Source of the DNA: Candidatus Thalassarchaeaceae archaeon | Lineage (GTDB): Archaea; Thermoplasmatota; Poseidoniia; Poseidoniales; Thalassarchaeaceae | Direction of reading: 5' to 3' | Length of the DNA: 64,000 nt | NCBI GenBank assembly: GCA_023700245.1 | Contig: JAJPRE010000002.1 | Location: 34,363 to 98,362, forward strand | In this document: positions 5,831 through 60,746 of the stretch, piece by piece | Layout: each line of letters starts with the position of its first letter | How positions within the stretch are numbered: position 1 is the stretch's first letter | Translations under genes and position numbers: made by a program | Notes under the pieces: model-generated | Databases searched by the model: none | What the model was told of the DNA's origin: nothing | What the model saw: only the letters and a program-made list of their open reading frames with translations

Positions 5831-5835
5831 GATAT

Positions 5836-7910: not shown

Positions 7911-7956
7911 ATAATAACACAACTTTATCTATGACATTATCTCTAGAAGGGATTTA

Positions 7957-40025: not shown

Positions 40026-40703
40026 TTATATTTTTTGATCAATATTCCAAGGCAATATATCTTTTACTTTCCTTTCTAAAGTTTTTTCAATATTGGAAAT
40101 TATGGCTTCTTCTAATCTTAAACGATCTATTTTAAAGCCTTCCTTGTCATGAGTGTGTCCTAATTTATCTAATGACGTAGTTGTCCCTTTTTCCAAGCCA
40201 CAACATAAGAGTTCCTCTATTCTATTTCCAGGAGTTGCGTAATTTATAGCCAATCCATGTCTACTGACCCATTGTAGAAATGCCAAGCCAATCGAACAAA
40301 TCTTTTTTCCGTCTATCCAAACTCCCATCATCTCTGGATTACGATATGCACTCAAACCGCAATCTAATAATGAACTAATTACTAATTGTTCAAATTTTCC
40401 TATTATTTTTCTGATACTTTGCTCCTTAGTTCCCCATTTAATTATTGGATATACTACTAATTGCCCGGGTCCATGCCAAGTAATTCCTCCGCCCCTATCA
40501 ACGTTTACTTTCTTGTAGTCACTACTTATTTGTACTTCCTCTCGTCTTGATTTAGCCCCAATTGTAACAATTTCTGGATGTTCGACAATAATTATAGTAT
40601 CAATTATTTCATCATTTATCCTCTTTTTTTGCATTACTTTCATAAAATCGGAAACTATGTTATGTTCAATTATTCCCGCCCTAAGGACTTGAACTTCATC
40701 CAA
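40026..40703 (-). CDS. lipB: Octanoyltransferase LipB (lipoate-protein ligase B)
   Basis: VEHPEIVTIG, RGGGITWHGPGQLVVYPI and KKICSIGLAF (catalytic Lys). It terminates the 2-oxoacid dehydrogenase operon. Confidence 0.7.
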   Translation of the reverse strand: MDEVQVLRAGIIEHNIVSDFMKVMQKKRINDEIIDTIIIVEHPEIVTIGAKSRREEVQISSDYKKVNVDRGGGITWHGPGQLVVYPIIKWGTKEQSIRKIIGKFEQLVISSLLDCGLSAYRNPEMMGVWIDGKKICSIGLAFLQWVSRHGLAINYATPGNRIEELLCCGLEKGTTTSLDKLGHTHDKEGFKIDRLRLEEAIISNIEKTLERKVKDILPWNIDQKI

Positions 40704-40716
40704 AAAGATTCCTCAC

Positions 40717-42165: not shown

Positions 42166-43487
42166 ATAAATATTAAAGCAGGATTTTCTAACATTCTCTT
42201 CAAATGTTGAATCAATGATGCGCCATCTGCTCCATCTACAACTCTGTGATCAAATGAACTAGAAACATTCATGATTCTTCTGATAATTATCTGCCCATTC
42301 ATAACTACTGGCATTTCTCTTGCTTTATGGACTCCTAATATTGCTACTTCTGGATGATTAATTATCGGAGTAGCACCTAAACCTCCATCTCTTCCTAAAC
42401 TAGTGATAGTAAAGGTTGATCCTCCTAACTCGTCTAAGCTAGCAGTTCCTTTTCGGGCAGCTCCAGATACTCTTTGCATTTCCGATGCAGTGGTCCAAAT
42501 ATCCATGGTTTCAACATTTTTCACAACTGGCACATATAAACCTCTGTCTGTTTGGGTTGCAATTCCTAAATTTATTCCACTATGCCTACTTACAATATTT
42601 ACATTATCATCGAATATTGCATTACATTCTGGATGATCTGGCATTATTTTAGATAACGCCATCATTATGAATGGTAAGTATGTTAATTTAGGTTGAGTAT
42701 CATCTCTGGAGTGATTTAAATTATTTCTTAATTCTTCTAATTGAGTTACATCAATTTCTTCAAAATATGAAAAATGAGGTATCGTTCTTTTACTAATTAC
42801 CATTTGTTCAGCAATCTTCCGTCTTAATCCTACAATTTTGACTTCAGTTATTGCTTCTCTTTTAGTATTATGATTATTATTAATGAAGCCAGATGTTACT
42901 CCTTTAGTAGCGATATTTACATCTAAATCTGCATGCCTTATTCTTCCAGCGGGGCCGGATCCAATGATATTTACTAAATTTATCCCTGCCTCTCTTGCCC
43001 TCCGTCTCACTGCCGGACTTGCCAAAATTCTCTCATTATATCTCACATCATTTGGAATTTCAGATTCTACTGAATTTACTCTTGCTGGTGATATAGTCTC
43101 AGTTTTAGGTAAAACTTCAGGTTCCGGTAAAACTTCAGGTTCCGGTAAAACTTCAGGTTCCGATTCATCCGTAGGTCCTGTTGTGGAATCTCCCTCCAAA
43201 TTTTCATCAGAATTTTCTGAATCAAAACTTATCAACGTAGTTCCAACTGGCACCATATCTCCAATGTCTCCACTCAATGATAATACTGTTCCATCCACTG
43301 GAGATGGTATAGTAACAGTTGCTTTATCTGTCATGATATCTACAACTGGATCATCTTCCTTTACTGCATCTCCAATTGATACATGCCACTCAACTATTTC
43401 TCCTTCAACTACTCCTTCTCCTATATCGGGAAGTTTAAATTCATATTTCGCCATATCATTCCTCCTGTGTTTTTTTAATCGCGTCAA
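42162..43487 (-). CDS. Dihydrolipoamide acyltransferase (E2)
   Basis: Lipoyl domain with TDKATV, a PE-rich linker, a peripheral subunit-binding domain (ASPAVRRRAREAGINL) and the catalytic domain DHRVVDGA. Confidence 0.9.
   Translation of the reverse strand: MTRLKKHRRNDMAKYEFKLPDIGEGVVEGEIVEWHVSIGDAVKEDDPVVDIMTDKATVTIPSPVDGTVLSLSGDIGDMVPVGTTLISFDSENSDENLEGDSTTGPTDESEPEVLPEPEVLPEPEVLPKTETISPARVNSVESEIPNDVRYNERILASPAVRRRAREAGINLVNIIGSGPAGRIRHADLDVNIATKGVTSGFINNNHNTKREAITEVKIVGLRRKIAEQMVISKRTIPHFSYFEEIDVTQLEELRNNLNHSRDDTQPKLTYLPFIMMALSKIMPDHPECNAIFDDNVNIVSRHSGINLGIATQTDRGLYVPVVKNVETMDIWTTASEMQRVSGAARKGTASLDELGGSTFTITSLGRDGGLGATPIINHPEVAILGVHKAREMPVVMNGQIIIRRIMNVSSSFDHRVVDGADGASLIQHLKRMLENPALIFI
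43108..43161 (-). repeat. 3 x 18-bp perfect tandem repeat encoding the (PEPEVL)n linker of E2
   Basis: ggtaaaacttcaggttcc occurs three times in tandem, read directly from the sequence. On the minus strand it encodes PEPEVLPEPEVLPEPEVLP. Confidence 0.85.
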
Positions 43488-44466
43488 TTATTCGTGCCGG
43501 ACTAGGCATATAATCCCACTCTGTAGTATGAGGGAAAGGGGTATCCCACCCTGCTACTCTTTCTATGGGGCTTTCCAAATTGTAAAAACATCTTTCTTGT
43601 ATTGATGCCGATATTTCAGACCCAAAACCACTGGTCTTAGGGGCTTCATGAACTATGACGCATCTGCCGGTTTTCTTTACAGAATTTACTATAGTTTCCT
43701 TATCCCATGGAATAAGGGTCTGTAGATCTATCAATTCACAACTAATTCCTGAATCTTTAATTGCCTTTTCTGCTACATGCACCATCGTCCCCCATGCTAT
43801 TACGGTACAATCAGTCCCTTCTTTTGCAATTCTAGCCTGACCCAGTGGAATCTTATAGTGCGTCTCAGGAACTTCGGCTTCCGAGTGTCCTTTCCACGTA
43901 GGTACATTATGGGGGTCGCCATAAAATGGCCCCCGATAGCATCGTTTTGGTTCAAAAAATATTACTGGGTCATTGGATTCAATGGCGCTAATTAATAATC
44001 CTTTTGAGTTATATGGCGTGGAGCAATAGACTACTTTTAATCCCGGTGTATGAGTAAACTGTGATTCCGGTGACTGAGAGTGGTGATGTCCTCCTCTAAT
44101 CCCTCCACCTGCTGGTGTGCGAAATGTAACTGGGCACCAAAATTCTCCACCCGACCTATGTCTAACTTTTGCTATTTCATTAACTATTTGGTCATAAGCA
44201 GGGAATATATAATCTGCAAACTGAATTTCTACTACTGGCCTTAATCCATTTATCCCCATTCCAAATGCTGTTGCAGCTATGCCTCCCTCTGATAATGGTG
44301 AATCAAAAACTCTATGTTTCCCAAATTTACTTTGCAACCCATCACTTGTTCTAAAAACGCCACCAAAATATCCTATGTCTTCGCCAAATAAAATCACATC
44401 TGAATCTTTTTCTAGCATATTACTAAGTGCGCTATTAACTGATTGTACCATGTTCATTTCAACCAA
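43456..44466 (-). CDS. 2-oxoacid dehydrogenase E1 beta subunit
   Basis: Transketolase-like pyrimidine-binding and C-terminal domains (FGEDIGYFGGVFRTSDGL, SPLSEGGIAATAFGMGINGLRPVVEIQFADY). Confidence 0.9.
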   Translation of the reverse strand: MVEMNMVQSVNSALSNMLEKDSDVILFGEDIGYFGGVFRTSDGLQSKFGKHRVFDSPLSEGGIAATAFGMGINGLRPVVEIQFADYIFPAYDQIVNEIAKVRHRSGGEFWCPVTFRTPAGGGIRGGHHHSQSPESQFTHTPGLKVVYCSTPYNSKGLLISAIESNDPVIFFEPKRCYRGPFYGDPHNVPTWKGHSEAEVPETHYKIPLGQARIAKEGTDCTVIAWGTMVHVAEKAIKDSGISCELIDLQTLIPWDKETIVNSVKKTGRCVIVHEAPKTSGFGSEISASIQERCFYNLESPIERVAGWDTPFPHTTEWDYMPSPARIIDAIKKTQEE

Positions 44467-45711
44467 CTATTCCACCTTCCATTTATTCATTTCATCCCAT
44501 TGTTCTTGCAAGTGCCATGGTACACTTTCATAAACTTCTGTAAAGATTGTATCTGATGATGGATATGGGCCATTAGCCAAATCTCCATGTTTAACGGCTT
44601 CTTTGTATGCTAAAATGACTTCTGCATCTATCTCATTCTCTAATTGTAAATGCTTTTTATCTGTCCAATCATAATTTTTTATTAGGTGTAATTTTAATCT
44701 TTCTATTGGATCTCCACCGGGCCAAAATTCATGTTCATTTGAGGGGCGATATCTAGACGGGTCATCACTACTACTATGCGCCCCAGCCCTATATGTCAAA
44801 ATTTCAATGTGTGTTGCACCTAATCCGATTTTGGCTCGTTCTCTGGCCCACTTAGTAACCGAATATAATGCCAAAAAGTCATTTCCATCTACTCTGAAGC
44901 AGGGTATCTCATATGCAAGTCCTCTACTAGCAAAATTTGTTGAGCCACTCGCCATATTATAGTGAGTAGAAATCGCCCAATGATTATTTACTACATTTAA
45001 GATAACTGGTGCTTTATAGACACTAGCAAAATTAAGTCCGTAGTGATAATCGCCTTCTGCAGAAGCACCATCGCCAATCCAAGTAATAGTAACTTCATTC
45101 AATTGTTTATATTTTGATGCAAGAGCTACTCCAACTGCCTGACTAAATTGAGTACCTACTGGGCTAGAAATTGAAATAAATCTACCCTTTTTGTAAGTAT
45201 AATGAACTGGCATCTGCCTACCCTTTACATTATCTTCAACATTACCAATACAATGGCATATCATGCTAACCATACTTCTACCTCTAACAAATTGAGCACC
45301 TGGCTGCCTGTAAGTTGGAAATATCCAGTCTTGCTCCTCTAACGCCATAGTTTGTGCTATTGCTATACATTCTTCCCCCAATGATTGCATGTAAAAAGAT
45401 AATTTTCCAGTTCTCTGCATTTTCATCATTCTATCGTCAAAAATACGTAATCTCACCATATGTTTTAATCCTTGTAATATTTCTTTGTAATCCAGATTTG
45501 GATCCCAATCTCCATATGCCATTCCTTCGTCATCTATTACTCGAACTAGCCCTCTGGCATGGGCAGATGTTTCTTCTGATTCACAGTCAATTGGGGGTTT
45601 TTTCAGATCTCCAGGAGTCCATTTCCATTTATCAAAAACTGGATTATCTCCAGGTCTAAATGGGGCATCAGGAATATGAATGGTGATATTTCCTTCCTCC
45701 TCGCTTGACAT
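44467..45711 (-). CDS. 2-oxoacid dehydrogenase E1 alpha subunit (TPP-binding)
   Basis: GDGASAEGDYH TPP motif and the phosphorylation-loop-like YRAGAHSSSDDPSRYR. Confidence 0.9.
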   Translation of the reverse strand: MSSEEEGNITIHIPDAPFRPGDNPVFDKWKWTPGDLKKPPIDCESEETSAHARGLVRVIDDEGMAYGDWDPNLDYKEILQGLKHMVRLRIFDDRMMKMQRTGKLSFYMQSLGEECIAIAQTMALEEQDWIFPTYRQPGAQFVRGRSMVSMICHCIGNVEDNVKGRQMPVHYTYKKGRFISISSPVGTQFSQAVGVALASKYKQLNEVTITWIGDGASAEGDYHYGLNFASVYKAPVILNVVNNHWAISTHYNMASGSTNFASRGLAYEIPCFRVDGNDFLALYSVTKWARERAKIGLGATHIEILTYRAGAHSSSDDPSRYRPSNEHEFWPGGDPIERLKLHLIKNYDWTDKKHLQLENEIDAEVILAYKEAVKHGDLANGPYPSSDTIFTEVYESVPWHLQEQWDEMNKWKVE

Positions 45712-45754
45712 ATACTAACCCCAGCCTCTTAGTTATAATATATTCTTTGGAAAA

Positions 45755-46882
45755 CTAATTTCCAAATTGACCCTCATAAAGAACATTACTTATTGCTGAT
45801 CCGTTTTTATCCAAAGTTGATACGCGTCCTCTTCCTTCCGATTCTTCCCATTGTAAACCTGCCCTGTAGGAAGATCTTACTAATGGGCCACTCGCAACAG
45901 CAGAAAAACCCATTTTTCTCGCTTCATAATCATATTTTGCAAATTGACTAGGGTTAGGAAATCGGGATACAGGTAGATGTTTGATACTAGGCTGAAGATA
46001 CTGCCCAAGAGTAATCATATCTACTCCAATATTTCTTAATTCCTTCATTGCTTCGATAACTTCATCATCATTCTCGCCCAATCCAACCATTATACTCGTT
46101 TTGATTTTAATATCAGGTCGTAATTTTCTTGCCTCAGAAAGTATTTTTAGTGATTGTGAAAAAGATGCTCGAGGATCTCTAACTTTGGAATCTAGGCGTC
46201 GTACGCACTCTACATTATGAGCAAAAACTTTGATCGGCAATTCATCTAATAACATATTTAATGCCTTTAAATTACCATCTAAGTCAGAACATAAAAGTTC
46301 CAATCCTACATTCGGAGTAGTATTTTTTACTGAAATTATGCAGTCTCTGTAGTGATTTGCACCTCCATCTTCTAAATCATCTCTATTGACAACAGTGATA
46401 ACTGCATAATCTAGATCCATTCTTCTAATGGCATCTGCCAATTCTCGTGGTTCGTCTTTATTTAATTTTTCAGGATTTTTTACTGTGCCAACTGCACAAA
46501 ATTTACATCCTCTAGTACAAACTTCTCCAGCCACCATAAATGTGGCAGTACCTCTGCCCCAACAATCATGAATATTAGGGCATCTAGCTTCCTCACAAAC
46601 TGTATTCAAACCATGCTCACGAACATTATTTCTAGCCTCATTAAATCTTTCTTGAGCCTTCCCTACAGGTAATGAGGTCTTGAACCATTCAGGAAGTCTT
46701 TTTCTATTCATTTTCCTTCTTTCTAATGCAGTAAGATTAGATTTATCTAGGACTAATATGTCTTCTGATGTTTGCGACTCAATTGTTGGTAGTCGCGGCA
46801 CCATTGTTGTGTCGAGTAGACGTTGAAAGTTAACCATTATCATATCTATTCTATGAATTAAACTAAAAGTAGTAAAAAGCAA
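45755..46882 (-). CDS. lipA: Lipoyl synthase
   Basis: Two Cys clusters: CEEARCPNIHDCW (auxiliary) and radical-SAM CTRGCKFC. The start is probably an internal Met (MVPRLP). Confidence 0.9.
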   Translation of the reverse strand: MLFTTFSLIHRIDMIMVNFQRLLDTTMVPRLPTIESQTSEDILVLDKSNLTALERRKMNRKRLPEWFKTSLPVGKAQERFNEARNNVREHGLNTVCEEARCPNIHDCWGRGTATFMVAGEVCTRGCKFCAVGTVKNPEKLNKDEPRELADAIRRMDLDYAVITVVNRDDLEDGGANHYRDCIISVKNTTPNVGLELLCSDLDGNLKALNMLLDELPIKVFAHNVECVRRLDSKVRDPRASFSQSLKILSEARKLRPDIKIKTSIMVGLGENDDEVIEAMKELRNIGVDMITLGQYLQPSIKHLPVSRFPNPSQFAKYDYEARKMGFSAVASGPLVRSSYRAGLQWEESEGRGRVSTLDKNGSAISNVLYEGQFGN

Positions 46883-48272: not shown

Positions 48273-51209
48273 ATGGAGAACTATTACACATCAGTTGAAC
48301 GTAACAAAAGTACTCTAATTGCTGTTTTTCTCGCATTATTAATTTTAGCGCCGATTTATATCGCCTCAACCTCTAATTTAGAACTCCATAACAAAGAAAA
48401 CAAGAAATTTGAAAACTCTCAAGATACTAATTTGTATAGATTATATTTTGCGGAAAATGATAATAATGGCTCCTCCGATGGTGATGGACTAATTACGACT
48501 AAAATTCCTGAAGATGGAGGGCAAGCAACTGCTAATGCATTAGATAACACAATTCAATTCTCTACGGCCAAACTTAGGTCCGCCTTGGACTTTACAACAC
48601 GTAGTTTACAAGGTAATAATGATTATTATATCCCATTAAATTTATTCTTAAGGGCCTCGGGACCTAGCGGCTCTACTGTAGATTGGACAGTCACTATGAA
48701 AGCATCTGGCTCCTCGATAGGTTCTGTTACTTTGACTTTCGATGCCTGCAATTCTGGAATAGGTAGTAGTTGTGACGATTTCGATTATGAGGTGTTTGAA
48801 GTAAGTGTTGGATCTAGGGAGCAATTTTCTGTTTCTAAAGATGAAAGATTAGAAATTATCATAGAAGCATCAATGGATAATTGCGATGGTGGAGGTCTTT
48901 TCTCCTCTTGTGAAGCTGAAATTGCATGGAATGAAATTGATGGTGACGGCAATAGATTTTCAAGTATGGAAGTTAATGCCAATGCAATAGCTGATAGTTT
49001 AGTTCTTTTACAAAGAGAAGGGTCTGAATTAGTTGAAGGACCGGAATTAGAATGGTATCCTAATGATATATTTTCTGAGAGGACAATGCAATTTACATTT
49101 GATGTAAAAAGTGCCTTTGGAAGATATGACATTGCCGATGTTCAACTTTTGATGAGGGATCCAAATGGCGTTTATCGTATTGATAAAGAAATCCAAAGTC
49201 AAAATAATGAGGATATTGAAGATACTAGTGCAGGAATATTTGGAAAATATATTTGGACGTATCCGAGTGGCCTCCCATCGGGAGATTACTCAATCGAATT
49301 AGAAGTCTCTGACATTCAAGGTAATACCATTGTTGTTGAGCATGAAACAATAAAAATGTTACAATGGGGGGTAGCAGTAAATCATCGATTTGATAATTAT
49401 ATTGAATTTATAGCACCAGGTGAGACTACACCCATTCCTCTTCAGTTAGTCCACAGAGGGGACTCAACTAAATCTATGCAAGTTGAAATGGAAGTTATTA
49501 CAAATTTAGGAAGCTCATGGCTTGTAGAATTTGACTCTCCTGGTGGTTATACATTAAGCCAAGGGGGTGATGTATTAAATCCAATTCTATCAATTACTGC
49601 ACCTGATGATCTAAGCACTACGCCGGGCAAGATAAAAATAAGGGCGATTGCAGAAGCAACAGTGGAAGGAGTTCTAACAGTTGTCCATCAAGACACTCTT
49701 GAATTGGATTTGGAAAAAATCGATGTTTACCAACCTCCTGAAATTTCCCTTTGGTCTGAAGAACATGATGTTGCAATAGCAAATTCAACCAGAGGCGATG
49801 CAATTGATCAAGATATACCAAGATATGTGGAATATGGTGAATTTAATCCATTCTTGTTGGAGATTTTTAATACTGGTTTTGATGCAGACTCATTTAGAAT
49901 AGATATTCTAAAACGTTCGAAAGCCATTTTTCAACTATTCGATAATGATACGGGAGAACGGATACTAGAGGATGAAGGGGATGGAACCTTTCACATATCA
50001 TTATTGGAAAGGCACTCTACTCAAATTCTAAAATTTAGTGTAAAACCCTCTGACGATAGGGAAGATTCAGATATTGGGCAGATAGAATTGGAAATAATCA
50101 GTGAAGGCAATGCGTCGTTGAGATCTACTATAGTTTTCACTATTCAGAGAACATTTGGCATAAGGGCTGAAATCTCACAAGATTGCGACGGAACTCCCTT
50201 GGGGCACATCGAAGTTTCCTTATGCGCACCAGATATGGATAAACCAACTGTGGATTTAAGGGCCAGAATTCTTAATACTATGGAAAATGATCAACCATCT
50301 ACTCTTTGGAGAATTCAAAATCCAGCATCATTAAATAAAAATTTAGATTTAAATCCACTTTATGGCCAGTGGCAATTTACAATCAAAGATAAAGATGGCA
50401 ACTCTGTCCCGAGAATCACTCTTGGACCTAATGATTATACTGAAGTATTTGTAACGATAACATTGACAAATCAGGTAGAAGTAGGTAATCATACTGTTTA
50501 TCTCAGAATAATAGAGGATACTGAGGATGAAAATCCTCGTTATTTTGATTTGCCTATGACGTTTGAGGTTGAAGCTTCAGATCCAAATCTTGAGATAGTC
50601 CAAGTATCGCCCGTATCTCGTTTTATACCTGGGGAATCATATTCGATTCAGATGAAGGTCAGAAATAGGGCCAATACTCCAATGACTGTATTATTAAATT
50701 CTGAAATCGAAGCCACTGGTTGGATTGTCTCAATAGAAGGCAAATCTGGATCTCCACTCATGGAACTAGGGGCTTTCGAAGAAGAGACTTTTACAATTGA
50801 TATAACGGTCCCTATTAACTCCAATAATGGCGATAATATACCAATCATAATTTCTGCATCTCCTCTTGATACTCAGCAAAGTTTTTCTGATGATTATACA
50901 GCTAAATTTACTCTAGATGCAGTTATTGAAATTTCTTCAGTAACTGAAATAATACTAAATGAATTGACTCATCCGAGATTATCAACTATGATTTTAGGTC
51001 TAGTCGGAGTTTTACTATTATTCGCAGGTGTTCAAAGCCGTATGAACAAAAGAAAATGGGCTGCTCAAATGGCATACTTGGAGATGATATCCGCTACAGA
51101 AAATAATAATGCTGAAGTGGATCAAATTCCCGAAATTCCAGAACCAGTTTTGGAGATAATTGATAACTCGGTAGATAGATATGAGGAAGAAGACATCGAA
51201 CTTGTGTAA
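48273..51209 (+). CDS. Large (978 aa) type-I membrane surface protein, beta-sandwich repeat ectodomain
   Basis: N-terminal signal anchor (LIAVFLALLILAPIYIAS), about 900 aa of Cys-poor, N-x-S/T-rich repeats, a C-terminal TM (MILGLVGVLLLFAGV) plus RMNKRK, and a short acidic tail. Confidence 0.6.
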   Translation: MENYYTSVERNKSTLIAVFLALLILAPIYIASTSNLELHNKENKKFENSQDTNLYRLYFAENDNNGSSDGDGLITTKIPEDGGQATANALDNTIQFSTAKLRSALDFTTRSLQGNNDYYIPLNLFLRASGPSGSTVDWTVTMKASGSSIGSVTLTFDACNSGIGSSCDDFDYEVFEVSVGSREQFSVSKDERLEIIIEASMDNCDGGGLFSSCEAEIAWNEIDGDGNRFSSMEVNANAIADSLVLLQREGSELVEGPELEWYPNDIFSERTMQFTFDVKSAFGRYDIADVQLLMRDPNGVYRIDKEIQSQNNEDIEDTSAGIFGKYIWTYPSGLPSGDYSIELEVSDIQGNTIVVEHETIKMLQWGVAVNHRFDNYIEFIAPGETTPIPLQLVHRGDSTKSMQVEMEVITNLGSSWLVEFDSPGGYTLSQGGDVLNPILSITAPDDLSTTPGKIKIRAIAEATVEGVLTVVHQDTLELDLEKIDVYQPPEISLWSEEHDVAIANSTRGDAIDQDIPRYVEYGEFNPFLLEIFNTGFDADSFRIDILKRSKAIFQLFDNDTGERILEDEGDGTFHISLLERHSTQILKFSVKPSDDREDSDIGQIELEIISEGNASLRSTIVFTIQRTFGIRAEISQDCDGTPLGHIEVSLCAPDMDKPTVDLRARILNTMENDQPSTLWRIQNPASLNKNLDLNPLYGQWQFTIKDKDGNSVPRITLGPNDYTEVFVTITLTNQVEVGNHTVYLRIIEDTEDENPRYFDLPMTFEVEASDPNLEIVQVSPVSRFIPGESYSIQMKVRNRANTPMTVLLNSEIEATGWIVSIEGKSGSPLMELGAFEEETFTIDITVPINSNNGDNIPIIISASPLDTQQSFSDDYTAKFTLDAVIEISSVTEIILNELTHPRLSTMILGLVGVLLLFAGVQSRMNKRKWAAQMAYLEMISATENNNAEVDQIPEIPEPVLEIIDNSVDRYEEEDIELV

Positions 51210-51286: not shown

Positions 51287-54200
51287 ATGAATAGGATTTT
51301 ATTAAATTCTGATGCAAATATAACCAACAGAAAAAAGAAATCAGCAGTATTTTTTAGCATTATAATGGTTTTTTCAAGTTTTCTCGCCATGGAATATGGT
51401 ATATGGGAGGCTATGGCAACCACTGATCAAGATGGCGATGGGTTGAGTTATGGTATTGAATTTTTTATTAATACTCAGCCACAAGATTTTGATACTGATA
51501 ATGATGGTTTACCTGATGGTTGGGAATGGCAATATGGACTTGACCCATTATCTTCAGTAGGAAACAATGGGTCTACAGGAGATCCAGATTTAGATTCCTT
51601 GACTAATTTAAATGAGTATTTATATTCAATTCCTTCAAATTGGGATTTTTCAGGTACTCCAAATGTATTGGATAATGGCGTATGGTGGAATGGCACCGTT
51701 CCCGTTAGTAATTGGGATGAAGAAAGCGCAATGCAACTTCTACAAGGGTCTGGTAGTGATGGGTTTGATGAAGATCCAATGGGGAATATTTGCACCGACT
51801 CTTTTGATAATGATAAGGATGGTTTAGTCGATTCTTTTGATAATGATAATGATGGAGATGCTGATTGTTCATCTGATGACGATGACGGAGATGGACTAAT
51901 AGATGAAGATAGAAATGGCTGGGATACTGATGGAGATGGAATGCCCGATGGGTGGGAGGTTGCACACAACTTAGATCCAACTTCAAACTCAAATATGGAC
52001 GGTACTTTTGGAGATCCGGATAATGATGGTTTGATTAATTTGTATGAATATGTAAACCCTGCTTGGAATACTAGGAACGGATCAACATTCCCTCCAACTC
52101 AATATTTTAGACCAGGGCCTGACAATATGTCGTTTACAACGTCTCCTTGTAATCCAATGCTGGAACTGGGGCCGGGGGGGTGTCAATTTCTGACTGCAGA
52201 GGTTGATGGAATAACGCAAACCGACCCTCAAAGTAATGATACTGATTTAGATGGATTAAATGATTCCTATGAAGCTTTGATTTTACTTACAGATCCAACA
52301 TCACCAGACACAGATGGAGATGGAATAAATGATGGTATTGAAGTAAATGGCCAGTATGGAGATCCAGAACAAGGGTCCAATCCGCTTGACAATAATACTG
52401 ATGGGGATTACCTCGAAGATGGCGAAGAAGATCTAAATGGAAATGGGCTGATCGACGTCGGAGAAACAGATCCTACTCGGATAGAGGATGATGGCGATTT
52501 CGATGGCGATGGATTACAAAATTGGGAAGAAAATCTAACTTGTACATTATGGAATTTAGCTGATAGCGATGGAGGAGGTGCCACCGATGGAGAAGAACTT
52601 GATTTCATGAGGGCTACAAATCCATGCATGTCATATGTGAATTTAGAATTTTCAATATTAAATTATGATATATCTACAAAAGAACTAACTCTTAATTCCA
52701 CTGATGGGATTAATCCAAATCCAATTGACTGGAGGCAAACAGATTATCCAATGGCATATTATAATAATACTTCAGGTGACTTAACGGGATTTAGATTCGT
52801 AAGTATTTTTGGTAATAGTCTTAGAGGTATTGATTTAGATATGCCATTAGGAACTTCAACTATAATTATTACTAATGGATCATGGTGTTGGAATGCTACT
52901 GTTGGGGCAATCAATGATCCTCATTGCGATGACGATTACTCTGATTTAGATTCAGATGGATTGGCAGATTGGGAAGAACTAGTTGGAACTTGGGGATACA
53001 TCTCAAATATAAATATGTCAGATTCGGATGGAGATGGAGTAAATGATTTATCTGAAATACAAAATTTAACAGATCCTTTGGAGCCCTGCGACAATATATT
53101 GGATTCAGATATGGATGGATTAAATAATTATTTTGAAAATAACACTGGCTGCAGTTTGTCGTTTGGAATTACTCAAGGAAATTTGACCCAAGATAGTTAT
53201 ATTACTCTTTGGAATCAATCTGATTCCGACAGTGGAGGAGTTACTGATGGTCAAGAATACCTCGATGGCACTAATCCTCAAAATAATCCTAATGATGATA
53301 TTAATCCAACAGATACAGATGGTGATGGAATTCCAGATACTATTGAACAAGATATAGGAACAAATTGGCTAGATCCGGATACTGATGGCGGCGGCATTCC
53401 TGATGGCCAAGAGTGTCCTGAATCTTTTTGGATTAATGATTGTGTAGATGCACCCACGGATCCTTTTAATTCTTCAGATGATATCTTATATAATTCATTA
53501 TTCTTTTCAGCATATAATCTCTCATCAGGCCTTGACACAGGCATGAAACATTACTGGAGATGGCACACATATGATAGTTATACGGGAGTTTCTTGGGGGG
53601 TAAATTCAAGCCTCATCGGAAATACTCTTATTACTCCCTCATCGAACATAAGTCAAGGTGTAGCAGATTCTTCATTTTGGAACTCTTCTTCTGCTCTTGA
53701 CTGGCAATTAGTTTATCAAGATGGAATTATGGCCCCAGGAATTGAATTAATATCTCCATATAATTCATATGAATTTGACAGTTGGTCTGATGCTTCTGCA
53801 GGATTAAATTTTTCAAATTATACTCGTGATATCATTATTGACAATTCTAATATTGAAAACTTATATGTTTCGGCACCAGAAATAATATTGGGCCCTCAAA
53901 TAAGAGATAATTCGACAATTTTTTCTGGAAGTAGTTATGCCACATCTTTACCAGAATCATACTTGAATGATTATGGCATTCAAGTAAATAATATAACTCA
54001 GCAAATAATAAATAACTCCGGAGCTGTTTCAGCATGGGATAAAATTATTGCTATTCAAGATTTTATAATTAATGGTAATGAAACTATAACATTTTTACGT
54101 AACCATGATGGCTCTTCTAGGCCCAATAATGCCGGGATAGATAGCGATATTTCAAATTGGATTTTAACTTCTTCATTTGAAGGAAGTTGTGATGAATTTA

Positions 54201-57200
54201 CATCTCTATTTACAGTTATGTTACGCCATGCAGGAATGCCAACTAGAAAAGTTACGGGATTCTCAGGAGGAGAATGGACTGGCAAATCATATGACGTCTA
54301 CGGAGGTGATTTTACATGGTGGGCAGAAGTACATCTACAAACTAATCAAAATCAAGGAAACTTAGATCTGGGTTGGATACCCTTTGAAGCGTGTCCGCCG
54401 TTGTCCTTGGTTGAGGTCTTGGATGTATCATGGTCTCCAGATGTTCTTGGACGGGATTTGAATATTGGCCAAAATATTTCTGTTCAAGGGACATTGCAAT
54501 TTGTTACCAACTCTACTTCCGTATCTGATATAACACTCTCATTATACTTGGTTTCCCCGCTGGATATATCTGATATACCTGGATCTGCTGCAATTCCTGA
54601 ACATCTTGTCGCAACTACAACATCTGATTCAAACGGATTTTTTAATTTATCTGGATTACCAGCCGAAATTCTCAGTCCCGGCTATGCCTCTTTAGTCATT
54701 CAAACTTCAAAGAAAAATTATGTTGGAAACCAAGGAATCTCATTTTCTTGGATGATTAATATAACAGATGATGTTAATTTATCTATTCTTGATCCATTCC
54801 CAGTTGATCAACCAATGATAGGCGTTGGAGTCAATACAACCATTTCTGGTCAAATGTCTTGGAAAAACGATCCTAAAATCGATCCAACTACAGTTGATAA
54901 TCTACAATTAGAATTAATTTATTCTACTTCATTAGATGGTAATGTAGAATTAATTAGTGACGTAGGACCAGGGGGATATTTTGAATTTATAATCTCATTA
55001 CAAGACCAAGAGCCCTTAGGGCTAATTAATGCTTCATTGGAGTTTTCAGGATGGCATCAAGATGATTTGAATAATGACTCCAATCCAACATATCATGCAA
55101 TGCCCAATATATATTCATTCATGTTTGAAGTAACTCCATCTCCGAATATGACAGTAGTTTTAGAAAGTAAAAATTCTAACAACTCTATCATTGATATCGA
55201 CTCAAATATATTTTTAAATGGGTCAGTATTAAGTAGAGGATTAAGTCAAGATGCACTGAATGGAACTGTTTATCTAGATATGCGCAAATCCAATTTTAAT
55301 GGCCCGTTTATCGGTATTAAATCATGGCAACTAAACAATTCTTCTTGGATCGATGATCCCGGTAATTTTTCAATTAATTGGCTATTTAATGCCTCAGAAG
55401 TTCCAATACCCGCTGGACCAGTCGAAGTAAGAATTAGATTTGACGCCGATATTTTAACTTCTAATGACCAGGAAATATTTACCGATATTTATGGGATAAG
55501 GAGTAATATATTCTTCAATTATTCTCTTGCTTCAAAAATGAGAGGTATAGCTGCAGAAGTAGATGTAATATTGACTGATCATACAGGTACTTCACTTGCA
55601 AACTTTGAAGGCAATTATAGATTAGAATTTAATGGCGAAGAAGTTTGGAATATTACTGACCCAATTAACCCTAAGTTACTAGTAAGTTGGACGCCCGCTC
55701 TTGCCACTATTCCGGATGATTATAATTGGTCATTGTTCTATAATGGTTCAAAATGGTTAAATCCAAATAATTCTATTGATGAAATAAGGATAAAGGGAAG
55801 AGGTAATGTTACTACGAATTTGGGCTTCGAATGGTCACAAGGAGGCAACCTATCTTCTCAAAATTGGGTCAGAGGTTTTACTAATGATATAATGTCCAAT
55901 AATCCAATTATTGGAAATAACTCCTCCATAACTTTGTCACTACATGTTCCAACAGATTTACCCCCTACTCCTGATGGTTTTCCTTCTCCTCCAACTATAT
56001 ATGTCTTATCTAGCGACTGGATAGATGTGCAAACAGGTGAATATAATTTATCTTTCATAATGCCGGGAGATGTTGGTTCAGGAGCTTATGAATTATACTT
56101 AGAATTAGATTTTAATCTAAATCCCCCTCCTGGAGGTATATTTTACCAAGACACATCACCCGTCTTAGTAAATGCTGGAATACAAACTGAATTCATCGTT
56201 GAATTAAATTCTTCTGTAGCCATAGTCACCGCAGGGAATACTCTCAACTTAAATGCATCAATCAGTGATTTTGCCGATTCATCACGACTAGGTGATATTA
56301 CTGTAGAATTATATTTTGACTGGGGAGGTAACTCTCAACAATTACTTGATTCTACTATTTCAAATTCCGATGGTGATGCACTATTTGACCCAATAATTCC
56401 TGTTAATACATTACCAGGTTATTATCAAATTCGAATTTTAGCACCTGATGATATAGATGATAATTTGTCTGATATTGGTGCAGGAAGATGGCTTGAAGGT
56501 GAAGATTTTGCTAACTTAACCGTCCGAGTCGGAAGTGTAATTGAAATAGATTCAATACCTGCTGAAGTCACTGCTCTACAATATTTTACAGTTTCCGGTA
56601 GAGTGATGGATTCTGTTGATGCAAACAGGACTGTACAGGGCCCCGTTGAAATAGAAATTTTCTTTTTAGATGATCCGAATGAAATTTTAATTACTGATTT
56701 CACCACCAGTAATAATGGTAGTTTTACCGTTTCGGTTCCTACGGATGTATTGGGTAACGGCGTAACTAGCGGGGTCAGAACTCTAATTATTAGTGTAGTA
56801 AACGACTCCAGTCCATTCTATTTATCTGGAACTGGTGATACTAGCATATTAGTTCGGGGAATTCCTAATTTTATAGAAACTACTCCTTTAATTAATACAG
56901 TTATAGATAGGGGGACATCTGTAACAATAGGCGGAAGACTTGTGGAATTTAGCGATAATAATATTAATTTAAACGGCCTTCAAGTAGCCGCTAAATTTCA
57001 TGAAACTTGGTTGGATAATAATATTACTGATAATCAAGGGAATGTAAATTTTGATTTCCTTATACCAAATGATCACCCTTTAGGGCTTGTAAATGTAACT
57101 CTGTTTTTTAATGGTTCAAGTACTTTAAACTCTATATTTGAAATAATTAATACAATTTCTATCAGATCATCAACGTCTATTCAAATATATCCAATAACTG

Positions 57201-60200
57201 CAAATCCATTGCCTGGGGATTTCTTTAACGTTACTGGTTCATTAATTTCTAGTAATGGAAGCTCGGTAGTAAATAGGCAGGGAGCATTATTATCTCCTGC
57301 ATTAACATTTTCAATAAATGATGAATCAGATACCTTTACTGTTTCTTCACTATCCTTTTCAGATGATGGTAACTGGAGTGGAATTATCAGATTAGATTTG
57401 ACATTTTCCCGTGGAGTTAATGAAATAATGGTGATTTACACTCCAGATGTTAACTATTATGACTCTAGTGAAAATACCTCTATATTTAGTAGTAGGGGAT
57501 ACTCATTGCTCACAATTTTGGATCCTTCAGATCTAGATTCAGATAGTAGGACAATTAGGGGAGAATCAGTTGCTATAAATATGTCAATAATTGATAATGC
57601 GGGTAACCCAGTTCCATCTGTTCCTTATGATGTAAGTATTGAAGGATTACTGATAAGTTCATCTAATACTGATTTAGAAGGGCTATCGACTACCATTTTA
57701 AATATAGATCAATTCACAAAGGTTGGCCCTGTGAAAATAACTGTTTCATTTAATGGGATAAATAGTACTATTGGACTACTTGGAGATGAAGCATGGACAA
57801 GAATAATAATTTTGGCACCAACTAACTTGAATGCATTGATAGTGGAAGGAGAATTTATAGCCGGTGAGAAAATTACATTTTCAGGAATTCTTACCGACGA
57901 ACATTCAGATAGTCTATTTACTGATGTATCTCCATCGGGAGGAATCATACATCTATTCATCGATGATATTGACGCAGGACCACTCTATACAACTCAATCA
58001 AATGGAACTACAAGATCATGGAGTATTGTATATGATATTCCTGAAGATATGAATTACGGTTTACATACGGCTACAATGAAATTTCTGGGAGGCTTTACTT
58101 GGGTCAATCCAATGGGCCAGGGGGACTCCTTAAATCCTGAATATTACTTACCTTCATCGGATATAATGGAATTTAATATATCTCAAGTATCAAAGGTTAT
58201 TATTACAACGTCAATTACAGACGTCGATCGTAACGATCTCGTCTTGATCGAGGGGCAATTCACTGATCTAGTTAGCAGACCAATTCCCGATAGGCCTTTA
58301 AATGCATATATTGACGAATATTTGTTGACAGAATTATTTGTAAATGAGACAGGATTTTTTAGTATATATGTCCCCATTTCTCCAAATATGAAATTAGGGC
58401 CACGCATAATTTCCGTAGAATTCATGGGTGAAGAATTTATACTTCCATCAAATTCATCAACTGTATTCATTGTTCATGGACCAGTATATCCAATTGTTAA
58501 TTCACTAAATCCCATCGCAGTTGGAGACATTTTAGAAATTAGTGGTTTGGTTAAAGATAACCTTCAGGATGGCTTTCTCCCTAATCATACATTGGAATTA
58601 TTTGTAGATGATGTATTAATTGGCATAACTACATCTACTGACGAAGGATATTGGTATTATGACTATATCATTCCTGAAACTTTAGAAATTGGAAATCATA
58701 CATTCACGGTATTAAGCCCAGAACAAGGTTACCACCGTCAAGGAAATTTTGATACTAATCTTACCGTAGCATATCATACTAAAATTTCATTATCAATAGG
58801 TTCTCAATATGCAACGAGAGGAGATAACTGGAACTTCACAGGCAGACTTTATGAAGATGATACTCAATTTCAAATGGGACTTCAAGGAAGAAATATATTG
58901 GTACTTCTGGATGGTATTGAAATTTCCACTATTACATCAAATGACGATGGGACATTCAATTATAATCATACTCTGGGATATCAAATTTCTCGAGGAATGC
59001 ATGAATTCAAGTTTTCATTTGTTGGCGAATTATTTTATCTAGCATCAAATACAAATATTACTACTTTTGTTAATTCTGATATCCAAATAGAAATCTTACC
59101 AATTACTCATACCATAGTACGAAGTTCAAGTACTCAGCCTATTAAAATTCAGGGCTTTGCTAGAGAAATAGGTGGGCAATTCAGTATATTCGAGAATTTA
59201 TCAATAAATCTATTTTGGGAAAATAGCAATTTACCACTTAAATCTGATCCTTGGGCCAACTCCGGAACATTAAATTTTCAAATTATTTCTACCGCTCGAC
59301 AGTTTATGTTACCAGGAATAAATACTCTTGATTTAATTATTGAATCTGATGAAAATAGATATCTAAATGGTGCATCTATAGAAATTGATGTATTGGTTCT
59401 TGTCCAAATAGACTTTGATTTCTCTGATCTCGGCCTAGTTAATGGTCAGAGGATTTTGCAAGGTTCTGTGAATCTAACAGCTAATGATACGGGTGAAATG
59501 TTACCTGGAGTCTCTATGTCTGCTTTATTATTGAATGGTTCAACAACTCATTTTTCATCTACAAAACTAACTGATGAAAATGGGAGATTTAACTTTGAAT
59601 TTAAAGCTCTTTCGCCCTTACCGCCTTTATCGGATAAATTAATTTGGGGAGATTTAAATGTACAAATTAGTTCTAATTCAATATTTATTGATCCAATCAG
59701 CCTATCCAACTTAGCATTACAAGGGCACATGGAAATTATTTATGAAGAACCAGATTCTGAATATATTTTTGGCCCATTTATGTTGATAATAGGATCTATA
59801 TTGATCGTATCTCTACTGATAACTTCCTTCATATTATATGGTCGGCGTAAAAAATCTGAGTTATCGGAAATTGCAAATATTTTTAGTTATGCATCAGAAC
59901 TTTTAGCCGCAGGTGATGAAGTACGTTCTTCAATTTTTATCTGTTATCAAAACCTTTGTGAAGTACTGATGCAAAGAGGATTTTTAAGGAGAGGATTTGA
60001 AACTGTTAGGGAATTTGAATTAGCTATTAGAACAGCTTTACCTGAAATACGCGAAGAATCACTAATTGCGTTAGATCGTATTTTCGAAGAAGCCAGATAT
60101 TCAAGCCATATTTTGGGTGAAAATCATCGAAGTAATGCAACACTTGCACTGACCTCTGTAGTAAATGAAATCAACTCTCTTGAGGAAATACCAAATCGGG

Positions 60201-60229
60201 AAAATGAAATAGTTTCGGACATTAAGTAA
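51287..60229 (+). CDS. Giant (2980 aa) surface protein: signal anchor, TSP3-like Ca-binding repeats, transglutaminase-like core, Ig-like repeats, TM, and a cytoplasmic DUF4129-like tail
   Basis: Uninterrupted 8.9-kb frame. DxDxDG(L/I)PDGWE repeats span aa 45-720. The TGase core has GSCDEFTSLFTVMLRHAGMPTRKVTGF (Cys968) and FTWWAEVHL (His1016). About 1,900 aa of roughly 100-aa repeats follow. The TM is FMLIIGSILIVSLLITSFILYGRRKK. The tail contains TVREFELAIRTALPEIRE and IFEEARYSS. Confidence 0.75.
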   Translation: MNRILLNSDANITNRKKKSAVFFSIIMVFSSFLAMEYGIWEAMATTDQDGDGLSYGIEFFINTQPQDFDTDNDGLPDGWEWQYGLDPLSSVGNNGSTGDPDLDSLTNLNEYLYSIPSNWDFSGTPNVLDNGVWWNGTVPVSNWDEESAMQLLQGSGSDGFDEDPMGNICTDSFDNDKDGLVDSFDNDNDGDADCSSDDDDGDGLIDEDRNGWDTDGDGMPDGWEVAHNLDPTSNSNMDGTFGDPDNDGLINLYEYVNPAWNTRNGSTFPPTQYFRPGPDNMSFTTSPCNPMLELGPGGCQFLTAEVDGITQTDPQSNDTDLDGLNDSYEALILLTDPTSPDTDGDGINDGIEVNGQYGDPEQGSNPLDNNTDGDYLEDGEEDLNGNGLIDVGETDPTRIEDDGDFDGDGLQNWEENLTCTLWNLADSDGGGATDGEELDFMRATNPCMSYVNLEFSILNYDISTKELTLNSTDGINPNPIDWRQTDYPMAYYNNTSGDLTGFRFVSIFGNSLRGIDLDMPLGTSTIIITNGSWCWNATVGAINDPHCDDDYSDLDSDGLADWEELVGTWGYISNINMSDSDGDGVNDLSEIQNLTDPLEPCDNILDSDMDGLNNYFENNTGCSLSFGITQGNLTQDSYITLWNQSDSDSGGVTDGQEYLDGTNPQNNPNDDINPTDTDGDGIPDTIEQDIGTNWLDPDTDGGGIPDGQECPESFWINDCVDAPTDPFNSSDDILYNSLFFSAYNLSSGLDTGMKHYWRWHTYDSYTGVSWGVNSSLIGNTLITPSSNISQGVADSSFWNSSSALDWQLVYQDGIMAPGIELISPYNSYEFDSWSDASAGLNFSNYTRDIIIDNSNIENLYVSAPEIILGPQIRDNSTIFSGSSYATSLPESYLNDYGIQVNNITQQIINNSGAVSAWDKIIAIQDFIINGNETITFLRNHDGSSRPNNAGIDSDISNWILTSSFEGSCDEFTSLFTVMLRHAGMPTRKVTGFSGGEWTGKSYDVYGGDFTWWAEVHLQTNQNQGNLDLGWIPFEACPPLSLVEVLDVSWSPDVLGRDLNIGQNISVQGTLQFVTNSTSVSDITLSLYLVSPLDISDIPGSAAIPEHLVATTTSDSNGFFNLSGLPAEILSPGYASLVIQTSKKNYVGNQGISFSWMINITDDVNLSILDPFPVDQPMIGVGVNTTISGQMSWKNDPKIDPTTVDNLQLELIYSTSLDGNVELISDVGPGGYFEFIISLQDQEPLGLINASLEFSGWHQDDLNNDSNPTYHAMPNIYSFMFEVTPSPNMTVVLESKNSNNSIIDIDSNIFLNGSVLSRGLSQDALNGTVYLDMRKSNFNGPFIGIKSWQLNNSSWIDDPGNFSINWLFNASEVPIPAGPVEVRIRFDADILTSNDQEIFTDIYGIRSNIFFNYSLASKMRGIAAEVDVILTDHTGTSLANFEGNYRLEFNGEEVWNITDPINPKLLVSWTPALATIPDDYNWSLFYNGSKWLNPNNSIDEIRIKGRGNVTTNLGFEWSQGGNLSSQNWVRGFTNDIMSNNPIIGNNSSITLSLHVPTDLPPTPDGFPSPPTIYVLSSDWIDVQTGEYNLSFIMPGDVGSGAYELYLELDFNLNPPPGGIFYQDTSPVLVNAGIQTEFIVELNSSVAIVTAGNTLNLNASISDFADSSRLGDITVELYFDWGGNSQQLLDSTISNSDGDALFDPIIPVNTLPGYYQIRILAPDDIDDNLSDIGAGRWLEGEDFANLTVRVGSVIEIDSIPAEVTALQYFTVSGRVMDSVDANRTVQGPVEIEIFFLDDPNEILITDFTTSNNGSFTVSVPTDVLGNGVTSGVRTLIISVVNDSSPFYLSGTGDTSILVRGIPNFIETTPLINTVIDRGTSVTIGGRLVEFSDNNINLNGLQVAAKFHETWLDNNITDNQGNVNFDFLIPNDHPLGLVNVTLFFNGSSTLNSIFEIINTISIRSSTSIQIYPITANPLPGDFFNVTGSLISSNGSSVVNRQGALLSPALTFSINDESDTFTVSSLSFSDDGNWSGIIRLDLTFSRGVNEIMVIYTPDVNYYDSSENTSIFSSRGYSLLTILDPSDLDSDSRTIRGESVAINMSIIDNAGNPVPSVPYDVSIEGLLISSSNTDLEGLSTTILNIDQFTKVGPVKITVSFNGINSTIGLLGDEAWTRIIILAPTNLNALIVEGEFIAGEKITFSGILTDEHSDSLFTDVSPSGGIIHLFIDDIDAGPLYTTQSNGTTRSWSIVYDIPEDMNYGLHTATMKFLGGFTWVNPMGQGDSLNPEYYLPSSDIMEFNISQVSKVIITTSITDVDRNDLVLIEGQFTDLVSRPIPDRPLNAYIDEYLLTELFVNETGFFSIYVPISPNMKLGPRIISVEFMGEEFILPSNSSTVFIVHGPVYPIVNSLNPIAVGDILEISGLVKDNLQDGFLPNHTLELFVDDVLIGITTSTDEGYWYYDYIIPETLEIGNHTFTVLSPEQGYHRQGNFDTNLTVAYHTKISLSIGSQYATRGDNWNFTGRLYEDDTQFQMGLQGRNILVLLDGIEISTITSNDDGTFNYNHTLGYQISRGMHEFKFSFVGELFYLASNTNITTFVNSDIQIEILPITHTIVRSSSTQPIKIQGFAREIGGQFSIFENLSINLFWENSNLPLKSDPWANSGTLNFQIISTARQFMLPGINTLDLIIESDENRYLNGASIEIDVLVLVQIDFDFSDLGLVNGQRILQGSVNLTANDTGEMLPGVSMSALLLNGSTTHFSSTKLTDENGRFNFEFKALSPLPPLSDKLIWGDLNVQISSNSIFIDPISLSNLALQGHMEIIYEEPDSEYIFGPFMLIIGSILIVSLLITSFILYGRRKKSELSEIANIFSYASELLAAGDEVRSSIFICYQNLCEVLMQRGFLRRGFETVREFELAIRTALPEIREESLIALDRIFEEARYSSHILGENHRSNATLALTSVVNEINSLEEIPNRENEIVSDIK
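51420..53460 (+). repeat. Coding array of TSP3-like DxDxDG calcium-binding repeats within the giant ORF
   Basis: Recurrent gatggNgatgg... codons encoding DQDGDGL, DTDNDGLPDGWEW, DNDKDGLVD, DTDGDGMPDGWEV, DPDNDGLINLYEY, DTDLDGLND, DTDGDGINDGIE, DSDGDGVNDLSE, DTDGDGIPDTIE and DTDGGGIPDGQE. Confidence 0.7.
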
Positions 60230-60236
60230 CTGATTC

Positions 60237-60746
60237 CTAATTACTCAATTCTAGCGTACCTTGGGACCAAACTCCTTTACTAATTTTAATGCTATCATTG
60301 ATCAAGAATTCCTCAATATTACCTCCGAATGTATTCGGTACAATAATTCTTAGATGGGTACGTTTTTCGTTAATTTCAACGATTATATCCTTTGGAGAAT
60401 TTGATTCTAAAGGAATTAAAAAATTAGATTTAAATTCTATAGATTTTGAAATATCCTCAAATATACTTAAATTACGTATTTGTTTTAAAGATTCTTTTTT
60501 GTCTTCCATTGAATCTGATAATTTTGATATCATTTTATTATGGCTAGATTTAACCTCATTTAAATGAGTTAATCCATTTAGAAATGAATCATGCATTTTT
60601 TCTGCGTTGTTATCTAATCCAAAATCTTCATTACTACCCGGGCCATATCTATCTTGTTCTGATTCTAAAATTGATATTTCCAGTCTTTCCCAATCCATGT
60701 TATCAACTTGGCCCACAGGTTCGATGTGCATTAACTCATTGTTCAA
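60237..60746 (-). CDS. Hypothetical acidic 169-aa protein, translationally coupled to XPD
   Basis: ATGA start/stop overlap with the upstream helicase (60743-60746). Acidic N-terminal half with a beta-rich C-terminal half. No confident motif. Confidence 0.45.
   Translation of the reverse strand: MNNELMHIEPVGQVDNMDWERLEISILESEQDRYGPGSNEDFGLDNNAEKMHDSFLNGLTHLNEVKSSHNKMISKLSDSMEDKKESLKQIRNLSIFEDISKSIEFKSNFLIPLESNSPKDIIVEINEKRTHLRIIVPNTFGGNIEEFLINDSIKISKGVWSQGTLELSN

Follow-up and report, generated by a model that had tools for sequence, protein, structure and literature searches.

Family assignment, membrane placement and possible role of the DUF4129 tail of a giant surface protein from a marine group II archaeon

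Introduction

Proteins in which a transglutaminase core, a transmembrane helix and a C-terminal DUF4129 domain follow one another have TgpA (PA2873) of Pseudomonas aeruginosa as their type example. DUF4129 itself is, to our knowledge, a functionally uncharacterised module of which no structure has been solved. Here we describe a giant protein of 2980 amino acids (aa) whose C-terminal tail we assign to this family. It is encoded in a stretch of 64,000 nucleotides (nt) of DNA, called the window below, from Candidatus Thalassarchaeaceae archaeon, a marine group II (MGII) archaeon of subgroup MGIIb in the order Poseidoniales (GenBank assembly GCA_023700245.1, contig JAJPRE010000002.1, positions 34,363 to 98,362 of the forward strand); all coordinates are those of the window.

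The tgpA gene, essential in P. aeruginosa, shares its transcript with PA2875 and PA2874, which we take to be MoxR and DUF58. TgpA counts 668 aa, has five N-terminal transmembrane helices (DUF3488) and carries an intact, active Cys-His-Asp triad. The giant protein resembles it in the succession of an extracytoplasmic transglutaminase-like core, a last transmembrane helix and a (very probably) cytoplasmic DUF4129 part, but differs in its length, its single N-terminal hydrophobic segment, its TSP3 repeats and immunoglobulin-like (Ig-like) arrays, and the lack of His and Asp at the triad positions; DUF3488 (PF11992) found no match in the giant protein in the Pfam search. TgpA was reported to have six transmembrane helices in total, with a periplasmic domain at residues 180-544 (PMC3507681).

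In bifidobacteria, a cluster of MoxR, DUF58 and transglutaminase genes has been described: in the Bifidobacterium PFNA cluster (pkb2-fn3-aaa-atp-duf58-tgm), genes for a large surface adhesin, a MoxR ATPase, a DUF58 protein and a transglutaminase-like membrane protein form one conserved unit (PMC8430577). This cluster is bacterial, its adhesin and transglutaminase are separate proteins, DUF4129 is unmentioned, and the roles proposed for it are speculative (PMC8430577). Closer to the window, surface proteins of other Thermoplasmatota (e.g. UCH89093.1, from a Thermoplasmata archaeon) share a signal or anchor segment, a large beta-rich ectodomain, one transmembrane helix and a tail of ~110 aa with ETxREFE and EEARYSxH. 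Many of these DUF4129-tailed genes lie directly upstream of DUF4350-DUF58 (with or without MoxR), whereas the MGII genes do not. Finally, the Asp-rich N-terminal TSP3 repeats of the giant protein match the models of Myxococcus CglD and MtsD, far below the cut-offs; this likeness is confined to the repeats and has no bearing on the tail. Thrombospondin genes were listed by Rinke et al. as adhesion factors of Poseidoniales (PMC6461757). A literature search on DUF4129 yielded nothing informative, returning AopN with a weak KEGG motif, and a search for papers linking MGII and transglutaminase found none.

Family assignment of the tail

The giant protein is the product of the longest open reading frame (ORF) of the window, as taken from the ORF list and its translation. 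Two alignments were used, A1 with 29 orthologues and A2 with 20 orthologous tails, the latter being the source of the tail profile. The relevant features are:

51287-60229, forward strand: giant ORF, with a signal or anchor segment at the N-terminus, an ectodomain of ~2780 aa, a single transmembrane helix and a very probably cytoplasmic DUF4129 tail (Pfam: Transglut_core, TSP3_bac, DUF4129).
51341-51403, forward strand: N-terminal hydrophobic segment, aa 19-39, SAVFFSIIMVFSSFLAMEYGI, after RKKK; signal peptide or N-in anchor (Kyte-Doolittle).
54143-54391, forward strand: transglutaminase-like core, aa 953-1035 (Pfam PF01841, E=5.9e-11), with Cys in GSCDEF, Thr in DFTWWAEV and Glu in IPFEA.
59768-59842, forward strand: C-terminal transmembrane helix, aa 2828-2852, FGPFMLIIGSILIVSLLITSFILYG (Kyte-Doolittle peak 2.71).
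59843-59854, forward strand: RRKK, a stop-transfer or positive-inside signal directly after the transmembrane helix (read from the sequence).
59843-60226, forward strand: very probably cytoplasmic tail, 128 aa from RRKK to the stop codon (60227-60229).
59942-60136, forward strand: stretch matched by Pfam DUF4129, aa 2886-2950, profile positions 1-63 of 69.
59978-60043, forward strand: invariant block GFLRRGFETVREFELAIRTALP (loop and helix 3), holding the DUF4129 "TxxE" motif (alignments A1 and A2).
60071-60109, forward strand: invariant block LDRIFEEARYSSH (end of helix 4), holding the DUF4129 "ARY" motif (alignments).

When the tail was scanned alone (the last 153 aa), it matched the Pfam DUF4129 model PF13559 with 27.1 bits (E=4.4e-6), above the curated gathering threshold of 24.8 bits. 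The same match in the full-length protein scored 21.0 bits, under the cut-off, which is probably why the protein's own 90%-identity cluster, whose named members are all called "hypothetical protein", has kept that name. PF13559 is precomputed on nearly all orthologous tails. An exhaustive search with the tail profile returned 2360 representative protein clusters at E <= 0.001; among its matches of 600-1500 aa, 43 relatives were tested and 42 match PF13559, with E-values down to 2.7e-15 and, for relative P0079, a score of 49 bits.

Members of DUF4129 are marked by conserved TxxE and ARY motifs, and both are present in the tail, as T-V-R-E-F within ETVREFE and as F-E-E-A-R-Y-S. Among the 20 orthologues T54, A84, R85 and Y86 (tail numbering) are invariant and E57 is conserved in at least 90%, while in the alignment of the 43 distant relatives the E, Y, S and H of EEARYSxH and the T of ETxREFE do not vary. 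The domain also sits where the architecture would place it, at the C-terminus after the transmembrane helix of a protein with Transglut_core (aa 953-1035, 2828-2852 and 2886-2950). Judged by profiles and motifs, the tail belongs to DUF4129, and the assignment is secure at the family level. A preliminary description of this DNA, made from its letters, had recognised DUF4129 hallmarks of the form T-p-r-E-y and y-E-r-a-R-Y-g and had proposed a Pfam search of the tail alone; the motifs stand in invariant or near-invariant blocks and the search was significant.

Membrane topology

A Kyte-Doolittle scan of the giant protein revealed no hydrophobic segments other than aa 19-39 and aa 2828-2852, both with positive charges on the same side. 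The 2782 aa between them are acidic, poor in Lys and Arg and contain 85 N-x-S/T sequons; they carry bacterial TSP3 repeats (Asp-rich, N-terminal), Ig-like and CarboxypepD_reg-like repeats and the transglutaminase-like core. The tail is Glu/Arg-rich, contains one sequon, and its position R2 is invariant among the orthologues. The giant protein crosses the membrane once near its C-terminus, with the large sequon-rich part outside. By the positive-inside rule, and because the sequons are distributed 85 to 1 and the TSP3 repeats lie in the middle part, the latter is read as extracellular and the tail as cytoplasmic. The layout of TgpA, with its periplasmic transglutaminase domain, last transmembrane helix and C-terminal part, runs parallel and supports this placement (PMC3507681). 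That the tail is a DUF4129 domain located in the cytoplasm is very probable.

Through the charge flanks, the sequon contrast, the TSP3 repeats and the parallel with TgpA, these results agree with the preliminary description, which had proposed a cytoplasmic tail on an otherwise extracellular protein. The transmembrane helix followed by RRKK is present in the sequence, and the peptide that had been quoted occurs exactly in the frame of the ORF. The tail had been placed at the C-terminal end, correctly, but its length is 128 aa and not about 120, and the interval given for it, 59860-60229, begins 17 nt inside the tail and is out of phase with the codons by one base, so that its direct translation is full of stops.

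Conservation among orthologues

Full-length orthologues measure 2943-3088 aa and are 32-59% identical overall to the giant protein. The best 65-aa window of the tail has a mean identity of 70% in four distant orthologues, compared to 37% for the whole protein, and ranks first among all windows. In P0070, the most distant orthologue, this window again comes first (71% versus 32% overall), and the Asp-rich TSP3 repeat region is the only part with comparable conservation. In the 20 orthologues 39 of the 128 tail positions are invariant. The alignments indicate that the constraint on the tail is much stronger than on most of the ectodomain; conservation among orthologues had been named beforehand as a test of the DUF4129 proposal, and is thus present.

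Relatives of the tail are encoded in 442 species-representative genomes, almost all of them Poseidoniales among the 80 listed, and the tail is 98% identical to those of the metagenome-assembled genomes JBKEHQ01 and UBA557. In the first homology search all 55 matches were short (84-268 aa). The possibility that the tail exists as a stand-alone small gene was rejected, as these matches proved to be contig-end fragments or frameshift-broken pieces of the giant gene. With the giant protein as query, tblastn recovered one continuous orthologue, across frames, through the 5-7 called genes of loci L001 and L002. In these pilon-polished long-read/nanopore assemblies (L001 1627-10564, L002 1812-10780) both the giant gene and the XPD gene are frameshift-split, the former into 5-7 called genes, and since such frameshifts divide the giant gene, false small "DUF4129 proteins" fill the protein databases.

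Several further observations concern the orthologues. Short-contig fragments of the gene have been misnamed "nitrate reductase beta subunit" (P0015) and "predicted deacylase" (P0038). Locus L054 (PBAZ01000027.1), binned as "Chloroflexota bacterium SP4360", encodes a tail of the MGII type (62% identical over 126 aa), and the contig is probably mis-binned. The end of the tail (60191-60226, forward strand) contains a conserved I-P-x-R motif with invariant P and R in alignment A1; 11 of the 29 aligned orthologues stop exactly at the R, and the window protein and its closer relatives extend for ~9-14 acidic residues. This motif could be a candidate C-terminal short linear motif.

Predicted fold of the tail

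AlphaFold2, run on alignment A2, predicted a five-helix bundle with a mean pLDDT of 84.1 and a pTM of 0.75. The helices span (tail numbering) 2-22, 27-44, 55-65, 71-86 and 93-112, and disorder is predicted for the last 8-10 residues. By prediction, the tail is a compact five-helix bundle continuous with the transmembrane helix. The Pfam model spans only the second half of helix 2 to the start of helix 5; since relatives match tail positions ~1-112, the conserved module comprises ~110 aa and is longer than the model. T54 of TxxE immediately precedes predicted helix 3, with E57 three residues further, and because of this arrangement we infer that the hallmark is structural, following the pattern of a helix N-capping box. 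Sequence searches of the PDB with the tail alone and with its profile returned nothing, or chance matches to the N-terminal helix of G-beta.

Distant relatives and their gene neighbourhoods

The proteins matched by the tail profile fall into three groups. The first comprises the MGII giants (2943-3088 aa). The second consists of surface proteins of Thermoplasmatota, mostly of 1000-1400 aa and up to 2653 aa, in which a signal or anchor segment is followed by arrays of Ig-like, MG2 or CarboxypepD_reg domains, one transmembrane helix and the tail. The third contains proteins of ~310 aa with four transmembrane helices followed by the tail, in N-in orientation. In 40 relatives the tail match begins where the transmembrane helix ends, and a transglutaminase core is detectable in only 6 of 43 relatives of the second group, so the module is tied to the cytoplasmic position after a transmembrane helix and not to transglutaminase. 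It always stands directly after a transmembrane helix, on the cytoplasmic side, on very different outer parts.

Gene neighbourhoods were examined for nine tail-profile matches outside the MGII orthologues and for one DUF58 match; one of the loci, L093, was too short to judge. The following arrangements were found:

L003 and L088: a DUF4129-tailed gene, then DUF4350, then DUF58.
L090: two tandem DUF4129 proteins, then DUF4350, MoxR and DUF58.
L094: a DUF4129 protein with four transmembrane helices (5339-6271), a small protein, MoxR and DUF58.
L091: the same order as L094, with a DUF4129 protein of 269 aa and four transmembrane helices (7688-8497); reached from the DUF58 match.

The L088 protein (P0122, 2612 aa) combines Transglut_core, TSP3 and DUF4129 and thus has the same make-up as the window protein. 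Locus L091 was reached via its DUF58 gene and is not an independent sample. Its 269-aa protein has no Pfam match on record and was found only by the hidden Markov model of the MGII tail (E=1e-19), from which it follows that the Pfam model under-detects the family. The "Euryarchaeota archaeon" to which this DUF58 match belongs was also considered as a close relative of the present genome and rejected, its XPD being only 25% identical.

Transglutaminase-like core

The best PDB sequence match of the core is the TgpA periplasmic domain 6G49, which is a weak one (E=0.056). In the alignment, the His of TgpA (DAHAWVE) falls on the Thr of the core (DFTWWAE). Of the MGII orthologues, 63 of 63 retain the Cys; among 64 MGII loci the His position is occupied by T (56), S (7) or K (1), and every one of the 64 has Glu in place of the Asp. 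By alignment, the canonical triad is absent throughout the MGII clade. A His occurs six residues downstream (AEVH) in 51 of the 64 MGII orthologues. The preliminary description had spoken of a "surface enzyme": a transglutaminase-like core does lie outside the cell, but its being an enzyme is doubtful because catalytic His and Asp are missing in 64 of 64. The core may be non-catalytic or may have an unorthodox site, for which the strict conservation of the Cys leaves room; on these residues, an active transglutaminase is not to be assumed.

Possible function of the tail

We consider it reasonably probable, overall, that the intracellular, membrane-proximal DUF4129 domain of the giant protein is a docking or assembly module for which a partner of the MoxR/DUF58/DUF4350 type is the likeliest. 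The tail would then serve protein docking or assembly and not be an enzyme, and through it a cytoplasmic or membrane-associated factor would handle the surface protein, in its assembly, positioning, turnover or activation. It is read as non-catalytic because TxxE lies at a predicted helix N-cap and because the R and the H of RYSxH are replaced in some members. The likeliest class of partner would be a MoxR AAA+ ATPase together with DUF58 (vWA-like) and DUF4350 proteins, since in other Thermoplasmatota their genes adjoin those of DUF4129-tailed proteins, and since the tgpA transcript also covers PA2875 and PA2874. For MGII this would mean a partner that works in trans or one that another factor has displaced. 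Taken by itself, the docking or assembly role is evenly poised, and a MoxR/DUF58-type partner in MGII specifically is rather doubtful.

Several results weigh against this proposal. No MoxR, DUF58 or DUF4350 was found in the window (Pfam/NCBIfam scan of ORFs >=150 aa, plus tblastn), and tblastn revealed none in the 10 kb that follow the tail at 80 MGII loci, in contrast to the operon of TgpA with PA2875 and PA2874. When DUF4350 and DUF58 profiles were used to look for copies elsewhere in MGII, no match bore the name Poseidoniales, the search being of limited sensitivity and most matches nameless. Outside MGII, three of the eight contexts from the tail-profile lookup (L004/L005, L086/L087 and L095) lack DUF4350, DUF58 and MoxR neighbours. 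In addition, the invariant charged residues of the tail (R49, R50, E53, R56, E59, R63, D78, E82, E83 and R85) could equally be compatible with ligand binding or catalysis.

The absence of these neighbours from the MGII loci would fit a self-contained role, in which the bundle self-associates, or serves only to stabilise the one membrane pass that anchors a 300-kDa ectodomain, and no dedicated cytoplasmic partner exists; in a variant, self-association in the membrane would possibly involve the ~980-aa surface protein encoded upstream. This protein, itself membrane-anchored, is the only conserved co-directional neighbour of the MGII giant, and a simple helical bundle, predicted to be continuous with the transmembrane helix, would suit such a task as well. 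However, a transmembrane helix and a few basic residues suffice for anchoring, and the tail has 39 invariant positions, of which many are charged and belong to loops (GFLRRxFET, EEARYS), as would suit a surface for specific recognition. The module is moreover found on small proteins with four transmembrane helices, without a large ectodomain, beside MoxR-DUF58. We regard a self-contained role as unlikely, if worth keeping in view.

It is also conceivable, at a low probability, that the tail and not the degenerate transglutaminase-like domain is the functional core of the MGII giant, acting as a transmembrane coupling device. The tail would in that case have become detached from an ancestral DUF4350-MoxR-DUF58 operon and paired with the 980-aa surface protein. 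If true, the cell would control or sense a 300-kDa adhesin from inside, by inside-out or outside-in signalling of the integrin type or, in the extreme case, with the Ire1-like RNase output of a HEPN domain.

A divergent HEPN-like output domain, possibly an RNase or nucleotide-binding switch, which would make the giant protein an Ire1-like transmembrane sensor, was considered for the tail since a Foldseek search with the AlphaFold2 model against the PDB put HEPN structures at the head of its list (7 of the top 32; best 2hsb, probability 0.99, E=0.075, TM-score 0.43), and since helices 4 and 5 are separated by a conserved R...H pair (RYSxH). Yet no match had E <= 0.001: all E-values were at least 0.075 and the TM-scores 0.36-0.47, a level generic for helical bundles and reached alike by those of cytochrome oxidase III, FAT and talin. 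The HEPN motif is Rx4-6H by family definition, while R-Y-S-x-H of the tail is Rx3H, with H changed to N, E or T and R to K or D in some members, and no HEPN was found by the profile search of PDB sequences. In view of the wrong motif spacing and the weak Foldseek scores the identity was rejected, and this function is very improbable.

A chance match of PF13559 to a low-complexity charged tail without a real domain, suggested by the borderline score alone, the sub-threshold score in full length and the "hypothetical protein" cluster, has practically no probability left and was rejected, being refuted by the matches of the relatives, the 2360 clusters, the conservation of the tail and the confident structure prediction.

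Neighbouring genes and other features of the window

Two genes flank the giant ORF:

48273-51209, forward strand: upstream surface protein, 978 aa, with transmembrane segments at both ends; co-directional with the giant ORF, 77-nt gap.
60237-60746, reverse strand: small ORF, 169 aa, acidic, of no family; convergent, 7 nt from the stop of the giant ORF, with a 4-nt overlap with the XPD gene.

The 978-aa protein has no Pfam match; it shows a weak match to choice-of-anchor T, and one member of its cluster is named "COG1470 family protein". Homologues of 980/981 aa are found directly upstream of the giant in L001, L002 and L096, the last encoding the 32%-identical orthologue, and the protein is a candidate functional partner of the giant. 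The idea that it is a divergent DUF4350 protein was rejected, no similarity having been found.

The order in MGII is the 980-aa protein, the giant and then, on the opposite strand, the small ORF, XPD helicase and an RHH protein, and it is kept around the 32%-identical orthologue. An ORF occupies the position of the small one in L096 (147 aa), L001 and L002. The small ORF belongs to the XPD transcription unit and not to the giant. Its 169-aa sequence, with a TTG start, is absent as such from the protein collection, and the true start may differ.

On the reverse strand, at 40026-46882, a 2-oxoacid dehydrogenase cluster is complete (E1 alpha, E1 beta, E2, E3) and accompanied by lipoyl synthase and LipB. 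Because lipoyl synthase and an SDR gene are also located upstream of the giant in L096, this block forms part of the conserved synteny. Farther upstream, the forward strand encodes a 495-aa protein with a thrombospondin type-3 repeat and a match to a chlorophyllase-like hydrolase (7957-9444) and a flotillin with Band 7 and Flot (13196-14638); genes of both types have been discussed in connection with adhesion or the cell surface in Poseidoniales (PMC6461757).

Significance

The succession of transglutaminase-like core, transmembrane helix and DUF4129 is a known architecture, and the tail is a known domain in a known position, so that no novel type of system is described; one sister cluster, at 58% identity, already bears the name [quoted passage not shown]. 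What is added is an annotation of domains and topology for a cluster whose public records all read "hypothetical", together with figures for how strongly the tail is conserved, the degeneracy of the triad and a difference in gene neighbourhood that sets MGII apart from other Thermoplasmatota.

MGII archaea, none of them cultured, rank among the most abundant of the surface ocean, and a role in attachment to particles and algae is attributed to their giant surface proteins. In one of these proteins, an intracellular tail is now singled out among the most constrained parts. The link of DUF4129 to MoxR, DUF58 and DUF4350, which recurs across archaea and bacteria, provides a testable hypothesis for culturable organisms such as P. 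aeruginosa.

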